Of a DNA stretch of 64,000 nucleotides, positions 1,456 through 34,357 are shown piece by piece. Position numbers and translations under genes: made by a program. Each line of letters begins with the position of its first letter. The first letter of the stretch is position 1. Source of the stretch: an uncultured Micavibrio sp. GTDB lineage: Bacteria; Pseudomonadota; Alphaproteobacteria; Micavibrionales; UBA1664. A model generated the notes under the pieces. That model saw only the letters and a program-made list of their open reading frames with translations, ran no database searches and was not told the origin of the DNA. The stretch is taken from assembly GCA_964531715.1 (NCBI GenBank), contig CAZHEE010000003.1, positions 34,989 through 98,988 of the forward strand. Reading direction: 5' to 3'.

Positions 1456-1542
1456 AGTATATCCTTTCCCTCGTAACCTGCTTTTACAGTGGTTGTCTTA
1501 TCCCTATTTAAATACATGGAGGAGGGCGTTTTAAGTGCGAAA

Positions 1543-1590
1543 ACACAATCCCTAGTGCCTCTATACATACAAGGATACTATATCTCGTGG
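1543..1590 (-). promoter_or_regulatory. two candidate NrdR boxes upstream of nrdA
   Basis: ACACAATCCCTAGTGC (1543-1558) and ATACTATATCTCGTGG (1575-1590) both fit the ACAC-N8-GTGT type palindrome. Their starts are 32 bp apart, matching the tandem spacing known for NrdR operators. Each matches the consensus only partially. Confidence 0.4.
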
Positions 1591-1595
1591 TCAGG

Positions 1596-1624
1596 TCTAT
1601 AGGACTATATGCCTATTTGGTCAA
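1596..1624 (-). promoter_or_regulatory. predicted sigma70-type promoter of nrdA; the 15-nt motif sits in its spacer
   Basis: The minus strand reads TTGACC (1624-1619), then 17 nt, then TATAGA (1601-1596). The spacer contains TAGGCATATAGTCCT (plus coordinates 1601-1615). That differs by one base from the motif at 30269-30283 and 30807-30821. Confidence 0.45.
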
Positions 1625-1909
1625 TTTTATGGTTATGCACAGCGTGAAAAGGCGCGTTTCCGCCTGTAAGGGGATAAATAAAAAAATTTTATCCTCAAGG
1701 GGAAATCAGCATACTGTGATGACGAATCAGGAGAAATTAAAATTGTATGTTTTCACAAGAGGAAAATATTCAAAAAGTGTGATTTAAATCTCTCATATTT
1801 TCGGGAAGGATGCCTGAGTCCTTTTTAGTGTTAGTGGGGAAGAACATTAAGAGAAAGCAGGCACCCTACCGGAAAATATGATTGAAAATTAATGTAGCGC
1901 AAATTAAGT

Positions 1910-2176
1910 TTATGCCGACCTTCTTAACAAATGGTTATCAGCGTTCTCATCTGATGCATTATTTGCAGGTTTTTTCAAAATACTTTTTTCGACACTTAAT
2001 AAAGTGTCTTTTTCTGCGTCTAAGTAACGAACGACATCCATAAGTTCATCATAGCTCATAGACTTCACGTCTTGCTTGTAAGCTTTATCGGATGTCATCT
2101 CGAAATATATATTTTTATTACTCATAGCTATACTCAATCTTTTAAAATTTTCATAATAATATAGTAACTGAAACAT
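1910..2176 (-). CDS. hypothetical small protein in an AT-rich stretch
   Basis: ORF-track entry only. No recognisable motif and no clear RBS. Confidence 0.25.
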   Translation of the reverse strand: MFQLLYYYENFKRLSIAMSNKNIYFEMTSDKAYKQDVKSMSYDELMDVVRYLDAEKDTLLSVEKSILKKPANNASDENADNHLLRRSA

Positions 2177-2199
2177 ATTATCAAGTTTTATTTGTAACT

Positions 2200-2938
2200 A
2201 GGCTCAGGACTTACAAATATTAACCTTTAAGTATTTTTTACGGTTATAATTCACTTGTAAGAAAGAAGGATTTTATGAGTAATTTGTACCTGTTATCGGA
2301 CAGTCAAATGGATATTATATCAGGCTACTTGCCGCCCTCATGTGGTGTTGCACGTGTTGACTACAGGGTCAAGCCGTGCAACAGGTGATCGCCGTGTGAT
2401 TAGCGATATCATCTATGTTATAAAAAATGGATTGTGGTGGTGTGATGCGCCCAAAGACTATGGTCCTCATAAGACGCTTTATAACCGCTTTATCTGTTAG
2501 TTGCGCATAGGCGGTTAAATTCCAAACAGCTTGCGGTTGTTGATGGTTTGGGGCGACCTGTGTGCTTATATTTAAGCGCAGGGCAAGTCAGAGACCATAA
2601 AGGAGCGGAGGTTCTGCTAGATAAACTGCCCAAAACAACCGTCATATTAGCGAATAGAAGGTATGACAATGATGCGTTTCGAAATGAACTCAAATCAAAA
2701 GGTATCACACCCTGCATTCCTCCGCGCAAAAACCGCAAAATATAATATCAATACGATAAAAATCTCTATAACAACGCCACAAAAGCTTGTGCCCGCGAAG
2801 GCCGGTATCGAAAATATGTTCGGACGCCTCAAAGATGGGATGCGCATTTTCATGAGATACGACAGACAACCCCACACTTTCTTCTCCGCAATACAAAACG
2901 CCGCTACTCTCATCCTCTATTGTATGAGTCCTGCGCCT
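2200..2938 (+). mobile_element. degenerate IS5-family element (IS427/IS1031-like) with a broken transposase
   Basis: Terminal inverted repeats AGGCTCAGGACTTACAAA (2200-) and the reverse complement of TGTATGAGTCCTGCGCCT (-2938). Transposase pieces lie in at least three frames: MSNLYLLSDSQMDIISGYLPP..., DRRVISDIIYVIKNGLWWCDAPKDYGPHKTLYNRF, GRPVCLYLSAGQVRDHKGAEVLLDKLPKTTVILANRRYDNDAFRNELKSKGITPCIPPRKNRK and ENMFGRLKDGMRIFMRYDRQPHTFFSAIQNAATLILY. These are typical of DDE IS5-family transposases. The central part is missing. Confidence 0.75.
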
Positions 2939-3012
2939 GGATAAATATTTTAGTTATTAAATTGTTGCTAATGCCGTTGCTAGAATGTATATAGTATTGC
3001 TTATGTTGCAAA

Positions 3013-3099
3013 GGGCGTGTGGCGGAATTGGTAGACGCGGCGGACTCAAAATCCGCTGTCAGTAATGACTTGGGAGTTCGAGTCTCCCCACGCCCACCA
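3013..3099 (+). tRNA. tRNA-Leu (anticodon CAA), CCA encoded
   Basis: Manual cloverleaf. Acceptor GGGCGTG pairs with CACGCCC. Anticodon stem GCGGA/TCCGC with loop CTCAAAA. Long variable arm. T arm GGGAG-TTCGAGT-CTCCC. Discriminator A followed by CCA. Confidence 0.9.
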
Positions 3100-7012: not shown

Positions 7013-7079
7013 TATGGCGTCAATAAAATCATAGTGTTCTATTTTTGTTCCAAAGTCAAGTGGGAATCTGATAGTATCC

Positions 7080-15466: not shown

Positions 15467-16165
15467 ATGACAAACACACATCACCCTCAAATTTTCTGTG
15501 CGATTGATACGAATGATTTTGATAAGGCAAAAGCGCTTATTGAAGCGGTCAAAGACATTTGCGGAATTAAATTAGGATTGGAATTTTTCAATGCTTACGG
15601 TTCTCAGGGCGTTCGGGATGTTATGGCGCATGCGCCTGACACACCGCTTTTTCTTGATTTAAAGTATCATGATATTCCAAACACTGTAGCGGGGGCTATT
15701 CGCGCAGTGACACATCAGGTTCAGCCCGCTTATATAAATGTGCATGCAAGTGGAGGCTCGGCGATGATGAAGGCCGCGAAAGAGGCTTGCCCATCTGGTA
15801 CAAAGCTTCTCGCCGTAACAATTCTGACATCACTCCATGCGCAAGATTTGGAAGAAGTCGGGTATAGTAACGATATATCGTCTCAAGTGAAACGCTTGGC
15901 AATGCTAGCGAAAGAAAGCGGGCTAGATGGGGTTGTTTGTTCACCTCATGAAATTGAGATGATTAAGGAGGCTTGCGGGCACGATTTTATCACAATGGTG
16001 CCTGGTATCCGCCCCGAAGGCTCAGCCATGAATGATCAAAAACGGGTCATGACACCGAAAGAGGCTATCACTCATGGCGTTGATCATATGGTAATCGGCA
16101 GGCCGATTACACAAGCAACCGACCCTGCCGAAGCCGCAAAAGCAATCATGCTCTCGCTTTCTTAA
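15467..16165 (+). CDS. pyrF: orotidine 5'-phosphate decarboxylase
   Basis: IFCAIDT, FLDLKYHDIPNTV and IGRPI motifs; 232 aa. Confidence 0.9.
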   Translation: MTNTHHPQIFCAIDTNDFDKAKALIEAVKDICGIKLGLEFFNAYGSQGVRDVMAHAPDTPLFLDLKYHDIPNTVAGAIRAVTHQVQPAYINVHASGGSAMMKAAKEACPSGTKLLAVTILTSLHAQDLEEVGYSNDISSQVKRLAMLAKESGLDGVVCSPHEIEMIKEACGHDFITMVPGIRPEGSAMNDQKRVMTPKEAITHGVDHMVIGRPITQATDPAEAAKAIMLSLS

Positions 16166-29579: not shown

Positions 29580-30233
29580 TTACTGACTCACCCAAAGCAC
29601 GCGTGCGATCCAAACCACCTGTTCAGGCTCGAAAACCAAATCATCATGCGTAGGATTTAAAGACTGAAGCTCTATTTTCGTATTCGTGCGGCGTTTGAGT
29701 TGCTTCGCCATGACTTGCCCATCTCTTGTCTTGACAATCACGCGGTCACCACGGCGTATGCCTGAAGAGGGTGAAACGACCAGAATATCCCCATCACGAT
29801 AGAGTGGCTCCATCGAATCACCGCTCACCTCAAGGGCGTAATTCGTATCATCTTTCGGCGTGAAGCCGGGCAACTCAACAAAATCCCACCCTTCCCCTTG
29901 AGGAAATCCTGAATCGGTGAAATAGCCTTGCGCCCCTGCCTGCACACATCCGATAACAGGAATCGCCTTGGCAGAGCGTGAAGTCGTATTAATTTCCGTG
30001 GTTTGAATTTGGATGAATGTCATAAATTCACTCATCGTGATATTGGTCACGGCAAGGATTTTTGATACGGATTCGGTGGATGGCCATCGCGGTTTACCTT
30101 CAGGGCTCATCCGTTTGCTTTTATTAAACGAGGTGGGGTCAAGCCCTGCTTTCCGCGCCAAGCCTGAAGTTGAAAAACCCGCGCTATCGGCCAGCTTATC
30201 AATCGCGGCCCATATATCTTGATGAGAAAACAT
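29580..30233 (-). CDS. CI/LexA-like transcriptional repressor (XRE-type HTH plus S24 self-cleaving peptidase domain)
   Basis: N-terminal HTH region (FSTSGLARKAGLDPTSFNKSKR). C-terminal S24 catalytic Ser motif (GDSMEPLYRDGDILVV) and Lys (VMAKQLKRR). The N-terminus is not the canonical LexA winged helix. Confidence 0.85.
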   Translation of the reverse strand: MFSHQDIWAAIDKLADSAGFSTSGLARKAGLDPTSFNKSKRMSPEGKPRWPSTESVSKILAVTNITMSEFMTFIQIQTTEINTTSRSAKAIPVIGCVQAGAQGYFTDSGFPQGEGWDFVELPGFTPKDDTNYALEVSGDSMEPLYRDGDILVVSPSSGIRRGDRVIVKTRDGQVMAKQLKRRTNTKIELQSLNPTHDDLVFEPEQVVWIARVLWVSQ

Positions 30234-30268
30234 AGGATAATAATCCCATACTCCGCCCGTAAAAGATA

Positions 30269-30286
30269 TAGGAATATAGTCCTTAA
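30269..30286. promoter_or_regulatory. candidate operator, copy 1 (TAGGAATATAGTCCTTAA), in the repressor gene leader
   Basis: An identical 18-mer occurs at 30807-30824. It contains the imperfect palindrome AGGA-N6-TCCT. It lies 12 nt downstream (minus sense) of a perfect TATAAT at 30304-30299. Confidence 0.55.
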
Positions 30287-30329
30287 CTAAATGACGTCAT
30301 TATATAGCTTGTTCTTGTAATCTTAAAAA

Positions 30330-30344
30330 GAACCACAGATGAAC
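30330..30344. promoter_or_regulatory. GAAC-N7-GAAC (GTTC-N7-GTTC on the repressor gene strand), the alphaproteobacterial LexA-box pattern
   Basis: GAACCACAGATGAAC. Caveat: it sits inside ACCACAGATGAACAC, which resembles a common repeat motif. Confidence 0.3.
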
Positions 30345-30455
30345 ACAAATATAAAAACTGTCATCTCGACCAAGCGTAGCGCGCGGAAGGATCTGAATAT
30401 TTTAACGCGAAGATAAGAAGTTTAAGGGAAGTAGACACGAAGATTTTCAAAAAAT

Positions 30456-30682
30456 CCGTTATTGCATGGCTTGACCATGCAATCCAAAAAATAAAACGCA
30501 AAGTCACGCAAAGTTCTTATTCGTCATTACACGGCTGGACCGTGTAATCCAGCTTAGTATTTTCTGGATTGCACGTATTCATAAATGAAACGTGCAATGA
30601 CGGATATTTTAAAGCACCTCCATGTTCTCTGTGCTTTCTGTGGTAAAAAGCAATGGATTACGGCCTTCGCCGTAATGACGAG
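30456..30682. repeat. cluster of four hairpin repeats of the CGTCATT-stem-loop-stem-AATCCAG family
   Basis: CCGTTATTGCATGG-CTTGA-CCATGCAATCCAAA (30456-30486); CGTCATTACACGG-CTGGA-CCGTGTAATCCAG (30522-30552); inverted copies CTGGATTGCACG...CGTGCAATGACGG (30565-30603) and TGGATTACGGC-CTTC-GCCGTAATGACGAG (30654-30682). Confidence 0.75.
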
Positions 30683-30806
30683 CAAAAACTTAGTGCCCTC
30701 AGTGTTTCAAATGACTATAGATTACACAGTCCTTTAATTATAAACCCCACAACTGGTGCGGGGTTGCGATGAAATAATATCCATAAGTAACCTATCTCTA
30801 ATATGG

Positions 30807-30824
30807 TAGGAATATAGTCCTTAA
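30807..30824. promoter_or_regulatory. candidate operator, copy 2, immediately upstream of the -35 of the phage-derived operon
   Basis: TAGGAATATAGTCCTTAA, identical to 30269-30286. Confidence 0.55.
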
Positions 30825-30831
30825 ATAATGC

Positions 30832-30889
30832 TTGACGCATGCTTTAATCCATGGTTTATATTAGAACATAATAAGAACAAGTAAAGAAC
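30832..30889 (+). promoter_or_regulatory. predicted promoter plus a triple GAAC-N7 array in front of the phage-derived operon
   Basis: TTGACG (30832-30837), 17 nt, TTTATA (30855-30860), then GAAC-ATAATAA-GAAC-AAGTAAA-GAAC (30864-30889). RBS GAAAGAGG lies before the ATG at 30904. Confidence 0.5.
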
Positions 30890-30903
30890 AAAAAGAAAGA
30901 GGC

Positions 30904-31308
30904 ATGATTATGAGGGATGGTATTACATTATTTGATAACGCGGAAGAGGCTTGGTTCTGGTTCATCAATGCCACAACAGCGCGAGAAAGCGGTGCAAAAA
31001 TTCGCGCCAATGAAGGGCTTTATAAACGCCCGTGTGAGCCATCCGATATCATGAAGATACTTGAGCGGCTTCACCGCCATCGCCGTCTTGATATGCATCA
31101 TTTCCGCGTTCTCAAACATTATGGCCTACGCATGATTGCACCTGATATCACTCGCGCCCGTGAGGTTTTGGCCGCCCGACTTTGGAATGAAGCGATGGAT
31201 ATCTTAAGCGATGTTTTTATCTCAAAAGGCATAATTGAGCGTTCTTTCGGGGCAGAGATTATTGACTTTCCGATTCAAAATCACGCAATGGAGGCGCAAG
31301 CATGGTAG
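30904..31308 (+). CDS. hypothetical protein, first gene of the phage-derived operon (possible DNA-binding protein)
   Basis: ORF with RBS. Contains AEEAWFWFINA..RPCEPSDIMKILERLHRHRRLDMHHFRVLKHYG. No family assigned with confidence. Confidence 0.55.
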   Translation: MIMRDGITLFDNAEEAWFWFINATTARESGAKIRANEGLYKRPCEPSDIMKILERLHRHRRLDMHHFRVLKHYGLRMIAPDITRAREVLAARLWNEAMDILSDVFISKGIIERSFGAEIIDFPIQNHAMEAQAW

Positions 31309-31718
31309 AGCGCCCCTTACTGACCCCTGAGACGGACGGATTATCGCCGCAAACTATTTGGATTGTGTTTTCGAATGATACGGATATCCGCCCGCTCAAA
31401 ATCCTGAAAAAAGGCTTTCGTCATTGTTTCGTGATATTGCAACAGGATGCGCGATGGATGCTGATTGACCCGCGATGCGATATGACGGAGGTGAAGCTCC
31501 TCCCCCATCCCGTGCATTTTAACTTTCCACGCTATTTTCAACAGCAAGGCAAAATTGTCCTGAAAGTACCGCGGCAAGCAACGCCGCGTAAGGTTGCGCC
31601 GCTTTTCCCGATGTCCTGCGTGGAAACGGTGAAAAGGATGATCGGTCTGCACCGCCGTTTCATTCTGACCCCGCATCAGCTTTATAAATATCTTACACAC
31701 TCTTCAATGAAAGGATAA
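31302..31718 (+). CDS. hypothetical protein (translationally coupled to the upstream gene)
   Basis: ATGGTAG start/stop overlap with the upstream gene. No family recognised. Confidence 0.5.
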   Translation: MVERPLLTPETDGLSPQTIWIVFSNDTDIRPLKILKKGFRHCFVILQQDARWMLIDPRCDMTEVKLLPHPVHFNFPRYFQQQGKIVLKVPRQATPRKVAPLFPMSCVETVKRMIGLHRRFILTPHQLYKYLTHSSMKG

Positions 31719-31724
31719 AATCCC

Positions 31725-32033
31725 ATGGGTTCGCTTTTCTCACCCCCAACGCCCAGTTATAACCCCGTCACCTATCGACCGCCAGTGACACAAGTGCAAA
31801 GCACAAATACAGGGGGTAACAGTATGACTATTCCTGACAGTGGTAATAGTGGCAATACGCTTTCGCAACCGCAACCTGATACGAGTGGAACAAACACTAT
31901 GGATGAACAAATTCGTAATGTCATTCAAAGGGCACAGCGTGGACGTAATTCGCTGATACAAACGAGCTATCGCGGTGTTTTGACCGATGTGACGTCGCTT
32001 GCCCCTCAACGTAAAAATCTTTTAGGGGAGTAA
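31725..32033 (+). CDS. small Pro/Thr/Asn/Ser-rich protein with a basic C-terminus
   Basis: It sits directly before the portal gene, as the small internal virion proteins do in T7-like phages. This is a positional inference only. Confidence 0.45.
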   Translation: MGSLFSPPTPSYNPVTYRPPVTQVQSTNTGGNSMTIPDSGNSGNTLSQPQPDTSGTNTMDEQIRNVIQRAQRGRNSLIQTSYRGVLTDVTSLAPQRKNLLGE

Positions 32034-32035
32034 TC

Positions 32036-33544
32036 ATGACAGAGACAAATATTTTAACGGACTATGCAGAGGCAAAATCACGCCGTAATGCGTGGGAGGC
32101 ACTCTGGAAAGATTGCTATAACTATGCCCTGCCTCAACAAGAGTCTTTCGGGCTTTATGGCTCGGGGCAGTCGAAAACCGCGCATATTTATGATGGCACC
32201 GCGATGGATGCGGTTGAACATCTGGCCGCGAGCTTGCTTGGCAATCTCACACCGCCATGGTCGCAGTGGTTCGGGTTTTCGCCCGGACCTGAAATGACGG
32301 CGAATGATGCCGCGCTCCTTGCCCCTGCCTTGGAAAAGGCGGCAATCCTTGTGCAATCTCATTTAGACCGTTCGAATTTCACAACGGAAATGCATCAGGC
32401 CTTCCTCGATTTGGTGACAGGCGGCACAGGCACATTATTATTTGAAGAAGGTATGACAGGCGATTTCTCCGCCTTCCGTTTTAAAGCAATTCCTCTTTCT
32501 CATGTCGCCTTTCATGAAGGCGCAAGGACAGGGCGGCTGGACAATATTTATCGTGAAACCGCAATGACTTTGGCAGAATTGCAAACGCGCTTCCCCGATA
32601 TTGAATTACCGATGAAAATTGTGCAACAAGGCACGAAAGATTCTCAAGAACGCTTTGACGTTTTAGAAACTGTACAGCCCGATAATCTCGTCTACCGCTA
32701 TCAGGCTTATTTGATGACAGGCGAAAGTGAGCCGTTATTGCTTGGCAATGGTATTTTCAAAGGCTCGCCTTTTATTGCTTTTCGCTGGATGAAATCGGCA
32801 GGGGAAATTTATGGGCGAAGCCCCGTGATGAAGGCTCTGCCCGATATAAAGACCGCGAACAAAGTGGTCGAACTTATCCTTAAAAATGCCTCGATTGCTG
32901 CAAGCGGGATTTGGCAGGCCGATGATGACGGGGTGATTAACCCTGCGAATATTGAGCTGACCCCCGGGACGATTATCCCGAAAGCCGTTGGGTCAAAGGG
33001 TTTAACACCGCTTCAAATGCCGTCCAATTTCGATGTTTCGCAAATTGTATTGGAAGATTTGCGCGCGCGCATTCGCCACTCTCTATTGGTCGACAGGCTC
33101 GGCATGGTCGGGCAACGGCAAATGACGGCAACGGAAGTCCTCGAACGCTCGGCAGAGATGGCGTTGCTCCTCGGGGCAACTTATGGGCGGTTGCAGTCGG
33201 AGCTGTTAACGCCGCTCCTTCAACGGGCTTATACTATATTACGCAGGCGTGGCGAGGTTCCCGATATTGATATTGACGGGCGGTTGGTTGCGATTGATTA
33301 CCGCTCACCACTCGCCCTTGGGCAGCGGCAGAACAACGTTCAAAATCTTATTTACTGGATGAACACAACGCTGTCCATGGGGGGTGAAGCAACCGAGGCT
33401 ATTGATTTGCCGGCCACTGCGCGGCATTTAGGGCGCGCGCTTGGCGTACCGAGTGATCTTATTCGTGATGAGCAAGCTCTGAGTGCGGTGACCGCACCGC
33501 TTGATGAAAATTTACAACCAAACCAACCGACTGAAAAGGAGTAA
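32036..33544 (+). CDS. T7-type head-to-tail connector (portal) protein
   Basis: Compared from memory with T7 gp8: ours YGRSPVMKALPDIKTANKVVELILKNASIAASGIW vs T7 YGRSYIEEYLGDLRSLENLQEAIVKMSMISSKVIG. Also ours MTATEVLERSAEMALLLGATYGRLQSELLTPLLQRAYTIL vs T7 VTAEEIRYVASELEDTLGGVYSILSQELQLPLVRVLLKQL. About 500 aa. Confidence 0.85.
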   Translation: MTETNILTDYAEAKSRRNAWEALWKDCYNYALPQQESFGLYGSGQSKTAHIYDGTAMDAVEHLAASLLGNLTPPWSQWFGFSPGPEMTANDAALLAPALEKAAILVQSHLDRSNFTTEMHQAFLDLVTGGTGTLLFEEGMTGDFSAFRFKAIPLSHVAFHEGARTGRLDNIYRETAMTLAELQTRFPDIELPMKIVQQGTKDSQERFDVLETVQPDNLVYRYQAYLMTGESEPLLLGNGIFKGSPFIAFRWMKSAGEIYGRSPVMKALPDIKTANKVVELILKNASIAASGIWQADDDGVINPANIELTPGTIIPKAVGSKGLTPLQMPSNFDVSQIVLEDLRARIRHSLLVDRLGMVGQRQMTATEVLERSAEMALLLGATYGRLQSELLTPLLQRAYTILRRRGEVPDIDIDGRLVAIDYRSPLALGQRQNNVQNLIYWMNTTLSMGGEATEAIDLPATARHLGRALGVPSDLIRDEQALSAVTAPLDENLQPNQPTEKE

Positions 33545-33549
33545 TAACT

Positions 33550-34266
33550 ATGACTGATACAAATTTATTAAATGACCAGCCAGGCAGTGCAAAACCTGCC
33601 GAGGGTATTCCCGCCAAATTCTGGGATAGCGAGAAAGGTGAGGTGCGCGTTGATGCTCTCCTCAAATCCTATCTTGAGCTTGAAAAGCGGATGGCGAATT
33701 CTTTGCCTGAACCGACAGATGAGGAAACACGCGCCCGATTTTTAAGGGCGGCAGGTGTGCCTGCAACGCCTGATGAGTACAGCGTGACAGTCAAAGATGC
33801 GCTATTTGAACCTGATGTGGAGCTAAACCGCCGTTTGCATGAGAAAGGCTTTTCGTCCGATCAGGTTCAGGAAGTTTATGACCTCGCCGTGGATCACATG
33901 GTGCCGCTTATTCTTGATTTAACGGCCGAATTTCAGGCAGAGCGTGAGATTGAACGCCTAGTGACATTCTTTGGCGGGGAAGACCAGTGGCGTGAGGCTT
34001 CACGTCAAATGTTGGCTTTTGGAAAGAAAAACTTGCCGGCCACTGCCCTGCAAGGCATGAGCGCATCTTACGAAGGGATCATGGCGCTCCATAAAATGAT
34101 GCAGTCGGAAGAGCCACAAACTATTACCGCACGAACAAAGGGTGTCTCCTCCAACGCAGAAAAAGATTTACAATCCATGATGAATGACCCGCGTTACTGG
34201 CGCGATAAAGACCCGTCATACATCGCGAAAGTCACCGAAGGCTTTAAGAATCTTTATGCTGAATAA
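33550..34266 (+). CDS. T7 gp9-like capsid assembly (scaffolding) protein
   Basis: Position directly after the portal gene and acidic composition. The C-terminus KDLQSMMNDPRYWRDKDPSYIAKVTEGF resembles T7 gp9 SEMIKAMSDPRYRTDANYRRQVEQKV. Confidence 0.7.
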   Translation: MTDTNLLNDQPGSAKPAEGIPAKFWDSEKGEVRVDALLKSYLELEKRMANSLPEPTDEETRARFLRAAGVPATPDEYSVTVKDALFEPDVELNRRLHEKGFSSDQVQEVYDLAVDHMVPLILDLTAEFQAEREIERLVTFFGGEDQWREASRQMLAFGKKNLPATALQGMSASYEGIMALHKMMQSEEPQTITARTKGVSSNAEKDLQSMMNDPRYWRDKDPSYIAKVTEGFKNLYAE

Positions 34267-34276
34267 AAAAACCAAT

Positions 34277-34310
34277 GGGGGACACCTTCACGAAGGTGTC
34301 CCCGTTGCTT
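34277..34310 (+). terminator. strong hairpin ending the phage-derived operon
   Basis: GGGGACACCTT-CACG-AAGGTGTCCCC, an 11-bp stem, followed by GTTGCTT (a weak U-tract). Confidence 0.5.
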
Positions 34311-34357
34311 AGCTTTCCCTCTTGCGGTTTTAAAAAAACCATCTATTTTGAATTTTG

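Follow-up and report, generated by a model that had tools for sequence, protein, structure and literature searches.

A phage-type genetic switch with probable lambda-CI-like repressor operators and a probable SOS box array, divided by a hairpin-rich insert, in an uncultured Micavibrio species

What is the function of an 18-nt sequence that stands once beside each of two divergently oriented genes, and why is it present twice? This question is raised by a 64,000-nt stretch of DNA from an uncultured Micavibrio sp. (contig CAZHEE010000003.1, positions 34,989 to 98,988; hereafter 'the window'), in which a 670-bp intergenic region separates the gene for a lambda-CI-like repressor (rep) from a phage-derived operon. 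An earlier note on this DNA proposed that the region carries one operator for each of its divergent promoters, and that two control layers, the local S24-type repressor and LexA, might be superimposed there. The comparative evidence described below supports an operator for the local repressor, Rep, as well as a LexA layer on the operon, but several features that the note had cited in favor of this arrangement, namely a GAAC pair and a TATAAT on the repressor side and a shared sequence, AAGAACAAG, did not hold up. The locus is a real but conventional phage-type genetic switch, wherein the 18-mer is very probably the binding site of the neighboring Rep protein.

The 18-mer, TAGGAATATAGTCCTTAA, was recovered by a pattern search with no mismatches at positions 30269-30286 and 30807-30824, both times on the plus strand and exactly where it had been reported. 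The identity between the copies runs on to 22 nt with a single mismatch. Upon shuffling the window 100 times, none of the shuffles reached three matches at three or fewer mismatches (mean 0.09). The imperfect palindrome AGGA-N6-TCCT noticed previously is indeed present within the 18-mer, which as a whole fits the dyad-symmetric motif TAGGAAnAnnnnCCTA. A third site of the same motif, which the earlier note had overlooked, is TAGGATAATAATCCCA at 30233-30248; it matches TAGGA-N6-TCCTA at 9/10 positions and overlaps the rep start codon. In most relatives the equivalent of this site abuts the ATG, and its counterpart in the closest relative (L085) is identical (AGGATAATAATCCCA). We refer to this third site as O1, to the first copy of the 18-mer as O2 and to the second as O2'; all three are annotated without a strand. 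Some details of the initial description needed correction. The second copy does not abut the −35 hexamer of the operon promoter, since seven bases (ATAATGC) stand between it and TTGACG (30832-30837). Likewise, AAGAACAAG, said to be shared by both promoters in the sense orientation, proved to be a 9-nt inverted match at the chance level; by a rough estimate rather than a computed control, about one such match is expected for the size and composition of the region.

The gene that begins at O1 (29580..30233, minus strand) codes for a 217-amino-acid (aa) protein with an N-terminal Cro/C1-type helix-turn-helix (HTH) and a C-terminal S24 autopeptidase domain. The latter is matched by Pfam PF00717 (5.5e-26), the HTH weakly by HTH_26 (Cro/C1-type; E = 0.002, under the Pfam cut-off), and residues 10-216 by the PHROG family phrog_4, 'transcriptional repressor' (2.6e-28). 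The best solved relative of Rep is the lambda repressor (3bdn), and its identity to phage CI proteins is ~25-30%. Among 20 homologues (58-76% identity), residues 1-60 are nearly invariant and Ala99-Gly100, Ser140 and Lys177 are entirely so, with Ala99-Gly100 standing opposite the VQAG segment of lambda CI in a profile alignment. Given the invariance of these cleavage-site and catalytic residues, Rep looks competent for self-cleavage. In its Ser-Lys dyad, Ala-Gly site, HTH and conserved dyad-symmetric sites, it has every sequence-level hallmark of a CI-type S24 repressor. We rejected the assignment of Rep as a canonical LexA protein, because it scores 43.5 against TIGR00498 (cut-off 110.95), through its S24 part only, and has a Cro/C1-type N-terminus. 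At least 556 species-level alphaproteobacterial genomes carry a relative of Rep; among the cultured carriers recognized by scanning genomes are Magnetovibrio blakemorei MV-1, Magnetospirillum sulfuroxidans J10, Rhodovibrio sodomensis DSM 9895 and Defluviicoccus vanus Ben 114. Nothing specific on this repressor family, its associated gene cluster or a T7-like gene transfer agent (GTA) turned up in the one literature collection searched, which is not proof of novelty. A paper on the Bartonella GTA was set aside as a match for the cluster because it concerns a different element.

The genomes closest to the window are uncultured Micavibrio-like metagenome-assembled genomes. The divergent repressor/operon layout recurs in 27 of the best 80 loci, and also in ~30 further contigs classed as viral by IMG/VR. 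The conserved dyad in the aligned intergenic regions has the consensus TAGGAATAnnnnCCTA. Sites with at least eight of ten matches to TAGGA-N6-TCCTA occur at 6.6/kb in 28 orthologous intergenic regions, compared with 0.147/kb in the rest of those loci (~45-fold), and 71% of 84 loci have a site of this quality in the 200 nt preceding rep, versus 3.4% of random control segments. Across the Alphaproteobacteria, the motif precedes this same HTH+S24 repressor gene. It is kept there even in Rhizobiales loci in which no operon was detected by tblastn in the available flank, and therefore the motif is tied to the repressor rather than to the operon.

The arrangement of these sites is also conserved. 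O1 abuts or overlaps the repressor ATG, O2 starts at nt 36 after the ATG in at least 12 loci, and a spacing of 36 is seen in 19 of 31 pairs of successive sites. Toward the operon, the end of O2 is separated from the −35 element (TTGAC) by 6-9 nt in all 42 scorable loci. Four loci (L007, L088, L090 and the window) are informative in this regard: rep is located 300-800 bp away, yet O2 stays beside the −35, and sites on the rep side are kept too. Since the 6-9-nt distance persists even where rep is hundreds of base pairs distant, O2 is predicted to act on the operon promoter. In the window, copy 1 begins 36 nt after the rep ATG, which is exactly the ancestral O2 position relative to rep, whereas copy 2 stands exactly at the ancestral O2 position relative to the operon promoter. 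Altogether, the operator motif and the LexA-type box discussed below recur at fixed positions in about 60 related loci, and TAGGAAnAnnnnCCTA with its promoter architecture provides a precise and testable operator description for a widespread CI-like repressor family.

Two groups of loci outside this layout carry related sequences. In Rhizobiales loci L010-L083 (Xanthobacteraceae, Nitrobacter, Tardiphaga, Aminobacter and Nitratireductor), the repressor gene is present, no operon is evident by tblastn in the 4-kb flank, and a TAGGAATTATAGCCTT-type or ACAGGAAAAAATACCTGT-type site precedes the repressor gene. The protein in these organisms either regulates its own gene, as an orphan CI-like repressor, or has its targets elsewhere. 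In addition, contigs L095, L098 and L113 (GC content 0.49-0.61; two of the three are high-GC metagenome contigs) contain the exact 18-mer in the common context GGGACGGGA..ATAGGAATATAGTCCTTAA..TTTGTCAA. No rep homologue is found in their available DNA. There the 18-mer might serve a related HTH protein, or it might be a conserved element of an unrelated kind.

Why the 18-mer is duplicated is best considered in light of the length of the intergenic region, which is 670 bp here versus the 130-250 bp usual in relatives. The compact region of L085 (137 bp), the closest relative to have one, contains an identical O1, a single O2, the TTGACG hexamer and the same triple GAAC array. The simplest history would be the insertion of ~0.5 kb between O2 and the −35, duplicating about 31 nt that comprise O2, the spacer and the −35. 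On this view a single ancestral operator was split by the insertion and duplicated at its flanks, and the copies are not independent operators for each divergent promoter as had been supposed. Compared with the operon promoters of the closest relatives, the sequence flanking copy 2 is clearly orthologous (z 10-13), and that downstream of copy 1 shows no clear homology (z 0.2-4.7). When the latter is compared as a decayed duplicate of the operon promoter, the similarity is significant versus L006 only (z 4.7), not versus L085 or L088, and part of the resemblance to L006 (TGACGTCAT) belongs to a hairpin repeat unit of the insert. Within the flanking repeat, the 18-mer is identical at 18/18 positions while the next 15 aligned positions agree at only 10 (Fisher p = 0.013). 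This difference hints, weakly, at selection on both operator copies. In other lineages that have expanded the region independently, Rep-type sites are likewise kept on both sides; one such expansion is in L088 (an inserted gene for a 97-aa protein) and another, with a different insert, is in L007 and L090.

Most of the insert (about 30287-30806) is occupied by an array of five ~33-nt hairpin units (30294..30681) in both orientations, three forward and two reverse, with the pattern (T)CGTCATTrCAnGG..CCnTGyAATCCA. Units 2 and 3 differ by compensatory changes in the stem. The sequence between the 18-mer copies is specific to the window, and is found elsewhere only in identical contigs (L001-L004). 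The units match no Rfam family and are not dispersed elsewhere in the 64 kb. At the gathering threshold, the only Rfam match in the window is a tRNA (3013-3096), and the intergenic region gives a chance-level match only. Candidate explanations for the units are a REP-like element, a protein-binding array or a structured RNA. We also considered whether the insert is a decayed copy of the first two operon genes (g134 and g138) or of a neighbor, and this was rejected on the basis of a Smith-Waterman score of 11 versus a shuffle mean of 11.5, and zero tblastn matches.

The second layer of the proposed switch involves direct repeats of the form GAAC-N7-GAAC, five of which are present in the 64 kb compared with 1.37 expected. 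Three of these reside in the intergenic region (30330-30344, 30864-30878 and 30875-30889), and the last two overlap to form a GAAC-N7-GAAC-N7-GAAC array (30864..30889, plus strand) whose three units are in register over the predicted transcription start of the operon. This triple array had been described as following the operon promoter, which was confirmed, and it is conserved in the promoters of relatives, with the in-register triple form common to the window, L085, L088 and L006. Of the 32 genome loci, 21 have a GAAC/GTTC-N7 direct repeat, and with all 45 loci counted the number is 36. In 29 of these 36 box-bearing loci the repeat begins 24-26 nt past the −35 hexamer, a position that directly follows the −10 and covers the expected start site. 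Box density is 3.59/kb in the intergenic regions versus 0.034/kb elsewhere (~100-fold). GTTCN7GTTC is the published SOS box of Caulobacter (PMC9578287, table 1), and the array ahead of the operon can very probably be assigned as a LexA (SOS) box.

The distribution of the box also offers clues regarding the protein that recognizes it. The box is found in either orientation at the same place, and its GTTC form lacks the TAGGA context; these characteristics fit binding by a protein separate from Rep. O3, an additional Rep-type site within the promoter spacer or directly after it, occurs in 5/9 loci without the box but in only 4/36 with it (Fisher p = 0.009), a tendency suggesting that the core promoter can be occupied by either protein. 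The remaining intergenic pair, GAACCACAGATGAAC at 30330-30344 (no strand assigned), had been interpreted as a LexA-type site on the repressor side. The pair does exist, but it is located inside the window-specific insert and has no rep-side counterpart in L007, L088 or L090. All three intergenic pairs read GAAC on the plus strand, and consequently are of opposite sense relative to the two genes. The other two GAAC-N7-GAAC sequences of the window are at 7036-7050, between a hypothetical gene and putA and behind a terminator-like hairpin, and at 15600-15614. No recognizable SOS gene accompanies these other boxes (the context of 15600-15614 was not examined), and so they lend no independent support to LexA specificity.

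The promoter elements on the two sides differ in how readily they can be assigned. The operon promoter (30832..30861, plus strand) consists of the −35 TTGACG, a 17-18-nt spacer and the −10 TTTATA/TTATAT (30855-30861). A TTGAC(A/G/T) −35 is conserved in the alignment of 32 loci; the −10 was deduced from the spacing and was not called by a simple promoter scan. For rep, the earlier note favored a perfect TATAAT. This hexamer is present on the minus strand (30299-30304) as part of the promoter-like sequence TTAAGA-16-TATAAT (30299..30326; −35-like TTAAGA at 30321-30326; 10/12 in a consensus scan), but it has no counterpart in relatives whose intergenic regions are 130-200 bp. Because it overlaps the first and weakest hairpin unit (30294-30323), at the uncertain left edge of the window-specific insert, it is at best an extra promoter specific to the window. 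The rep-sense consensus upstream of the ATG in the 32 loci is TTCCTAnTGCa, 17 nt, TGnGAcnAT, 6 nt, ATG, which suggests that rep has a promoter of the extended −10 type and is transcribed into a leaderless mRNA, like lambda cI from PRM. The corresponding candidate extended −10 in the window, predicted from this consensus, is TGG GATTAT (30240..30248, minus strand). The extended −10 consensus is not separable from the conservation of O1. If the transcript is leaderless, O1 would cover the −10/+1 region and O2 would be centered at −43.5, a geometry that can be read as resembling lambda PRM with OR3 and OR2. A Shine-Dalgarno sequence at normal spacing is not obvious at the rep start (window 30233-30268).

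Taken together, these characteristics point to the following account, which we consider likely although by no means assured. In the ancestral compact region (~140 bp), Rep dimers would bind two TAGGAAnAnnnnCCTA sites, with O1 over the rep start codon and O2 36 bp away, whereas the canonical LexA of the host would bind the GAAC-N7 array just after the operon −10 and block initiation. Expression of the operon would then require relief from both SOS-sensitive repressors, through cleavage of LexA and self-cleavage of Rep at Ala99-Gly100, and DNA damage would remove both proteins by RecA-stimulated cleavage. The ~0.5-kb hairpin array would have entered later between O2 and the −35, with O2 and a degenerate copy of the spacer and −35 kept on both sides. 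Following this split, rep would retain O1 and O2, and the operon would retain O2' and the LexA array. What the sequences themselves establish is the identity of the copies, the enrichment and conserved placement of the motifs, and the conservation of catalytic and cleavage residues in Rep. Both the identity of the bound proteins and the repressive sign of their action are predictions from this comparative evidence, as are the transcription start sites and SOS inducibility.

Several observations weigh against this account. O2 is centered near −53 of the operon promoter, where a protein bound alone would not obviously occlude RNA polymerase, and the window has no good O3 in the operon promoter spacer. 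Rep might act on the operon by direct repression, might assist by way of cooperative binding or looping, or might serve mainly in autoregulation. The perfect identity of the 18-mer copies could simply reflect recent duplication at the junction. Neither a canonical lexA gene nor a second S24 protein is encoded in the 64 kb. Moreover, the loci compared are phylogenetically related, and so the counts given above do not represent independent events.

Some of these observations can be accommodated by other explanations, which we weighed against the same data. The 18-mer could belong to a repeat dispersed through the genome and lack any regulatory role, and one further near-copy (15/18) is indeed present at 1598-1615. 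Such a repeat would be expected at many non-promoter sites, yet the 64 kb hold just two exact copies plus that near-copy. A metagenome-wide scan returned 25 single-copy matches in unrelated contigs (the source contig is not among them), none with rep or the portal gene of the operon, and it is the motif rather than the exact 18-mer that tracks rep across the class, which together render this explanation extremely improbable. The duplicate could instead be only an insertion scar, formed by junction or target duplication around the hairpin array, such that one copy or neither works as an operator. The copies do flank a window-specific 0.5-kb hairpin-repeat insert where relatives have a single O2, and their identity covers even the non-consensus spacer TATAGT, as expected of a recent duplication. 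We nevertheless regard a mere scar as rather unlikely, given that the copies occupy precisely the conserved functional positions (nt 36 after the rep ATG for one, 7 nt before the −35 for the other), that the sequence just past the 18-mer has diverged (10/15) while the 18-mer has not, and that the independent insertions in L007/L090 and L088 keep sites on both sides.

A more substantial challenge to the favored account, in which Rep and LexA both control the operon, is that O2 serves chiefly in positive autoregulation of rep, in the manner of OR2 at lambda PRM, and not to repress the operon, which would be switched essentially by LexA, plus O3 where present. The predicted geometry of a leaderless rep transcript, with O2 centered at −43.5 and O1 over −10/+1, is like that of lambda PRM. 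Moreover, O2 overlaps neither the −35 nor the −10 of the operon, and the LexA box covers the start site. However, O2 keeps its 6-9 nt distance to the operon −35 although rep may be hundreds of base pairs away, and the leaderless promoter is itself a prediction that overlaps O1. We view this autoregulatory role as possible but somewhat doubtful. The GAAC-N7 repeats might alternatively be bound by Rep itself or by another factor instead of LexA, given that Rep half-sites often read (T/G)GGAAC and so contain GAAC, and that the window has no lexA gene. This appears very unlikely when one considers that the boxes are direct repeats with 7-nt spacing in contrast to the inverted repeat of Rep, that GTTC-N7-GTTC without TAGGA context holds the same position in many loci, that the repeats match the published alphaproteobacterial SOS box, and that the boxes are anticorrelated with extra Rep sites.

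The locus shares many attributes with the lambda CI system and its operators OR1, OR2 and OR3, which lie between the divergent promoters PRM and PR. In each, an HTH+S24 repressor that has an Ala-Gly site and a Ser/Lys dyad is encoded divergently from a phage operon, and both have several dyad-symmetric intergenic sites, one of which lies over the promoter or start of the repressor gene; the rep mRNA is possibly leaderless like that of cI. There are also clear differences. The Rep operator, TAGGA-N6-TCCTA, is distinct in sequence, its sites are spaced by 36 bp instead of ~24 bp, and the main site is upstream of the operon −35 whereas that of lambda is over it. Furthermore, there is no cro-like gene here, the first operon gene has no family assignment, and rep is conserved and syntenic across a bacterial class rather than being carried on a mobile prophage.

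Dual control by a phage repressor and a host protein has precedent in CTX-phi, where the promoter PrstA is controlled jointly by the phage repressor RstR and host LexA. There, too, a single phage-derived promoter has a site for an element-encoded repressor as well as a host LexA box, and is tied to the SOS response via two proteins. The host class, LexA motif and repressor family differ between the two systems, and the local repressor in the present case itself appears to be self-cleavable. With regard to the LexA layer, the alphaproteobacterial SOS box GTTC-N7-GTTC (Caulobacter, Rhodobacter and rhizobia) is the same 7-nt-spaced direct repeat, is located at the core promoter or start site and occurs in either orientation. 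Unlike the usual box, the window and its closest relatives have three tetranucleotides in register, equivalent to two overlapping boxes, for which binding by a Micavibrio-like LexA is predicted.

The operon controlled by this region begins with g134 (30904..31308, plus strand), which is conserved next to rep. Its translation probably begins at the second ATG (30910; 132 aa, as in NCBI record P0121), because the AGAGG ribosome-binding site (30898-30902) is only 1 nt from the first ATG at 30904. The protein has no Pfam, NCBIfam or PHROG match, and its predicted structure (pLDDT, or predicted local distance difference test, of 84; four helices) has no significant fold match. Two conserved small genes without a family match follow on the plus strand, g138 (31302-31718) and g102 (31725-32033). 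These precede genes for a T7-type portal, or head-to-tail connector (32036..33544, plus strand; PF12236, 1.4e-131), and a T7-type scaffold, or capsid assembly, protein (33550..34266, plus strand; PF05396, 2.5e-10). The nearest cultured relatives of the portal are marine T7-like podophages (30-37% identity), with a Pelagibacter podophage being the nearest (37%). The scaffold gene is the last of the cluster here, after which comes the host gene ctaA. The window holds only the first five cluster genes, and none for capsid or tail was found anywhere in the 64 kb. The cluster is cut short at 34266-34355, and is longer in L085, L090, L091 and L171/L233.

In relatives, the operon opens a ~20-kb cluster encoding the portal, a Bbp19-like protein, the scaffold, the major capsid protein (PF19821), tail tubular proteins A and B, an internal virion protein, a tailspike, the large terminase, an endolysin and a holin. 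Between the scaffold and capsid genes, a PilZ-domain gene is inserted on the opposite strand, and this insertion is conserved. No integrase or replication genes were observed among the annotated genes of the loci examined. One relative (L233) has virion, packaging and lysis genes with no replication or integration genes among those annotated, the far end of this element not being defined. The cluster adjoins pyrE-nadK in Micavibrio-like loci, and IMG/VR calls the cluster regions viral, mostly at ~18 kb. In these respects there is a likeness to GTAs with links to SOS and LexA (RcGTA and BaGTA), in that the cluster of the relatives likewise has virion, terminase and lysis genes without annotated replication or integration genes, is widespread in Alphaproteobacteria and is syntenic with host genes. 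It differs from GTAs in its T7/podovirus-type ancestry, its dedicated CI-like repressor and the presence in the window of only five of its genes. As proposed, the system would tie a widespread cluster of T7-like structural, packaging and lysis genes to the SOS response via two repressors, and it gives a way to ask if and when the cluster produces particles.

A broader proposal is that Rep and LexA jointly gate a vertically inherited, replication-less particle cluster of the T7/podovirus type, representing a new GTA-like 'viriform' lineage, and that Rep has been co-opted as a regulator of the host response to DNA damage. We consider this unlikely as a whole, and the evidence is limited both for an SOS-gated, domesticated particle cluster of the T7 type and for a CI-like repressor with host targets such as ribonucleotide reductase. 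Two observations point toward co-option of Rep: the protein and its operator persist in Rhizobiales loci with no detected cluster, and an operator-like site precedes the ribonucleotide reductase gene in the window. This third operator copy, TAGGCATATAGTCCTA (1598-1615, minus strand), matches the 18-mer at 15/18 positions, including the spacer. It is contained within a promoter-like TTGACC-17-TATAGA at about 1595-1624, ~145 nt upstream of the large-subunit gene (ATG 1455-1453, running off the window start) and just ahead of two NrdR-box-like repeats. Among six other nrd upstream regions, two have a palindrome with at least eight of ten matches (one at the same distance and one weak) and four have none, and thus the existence of a Rep site upstream of ribonucleotide reductase in relatives is suggestive only.

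A further observation concerns this end of the window. DDE transposase fragments (PF01609) are present at 2485-2950, beside the tRNA at 3013-3096, in a ~1.5-kb stretch (about 1460-3000) that lacks long open reading frames and is probably a decayed insertion sequence or island.

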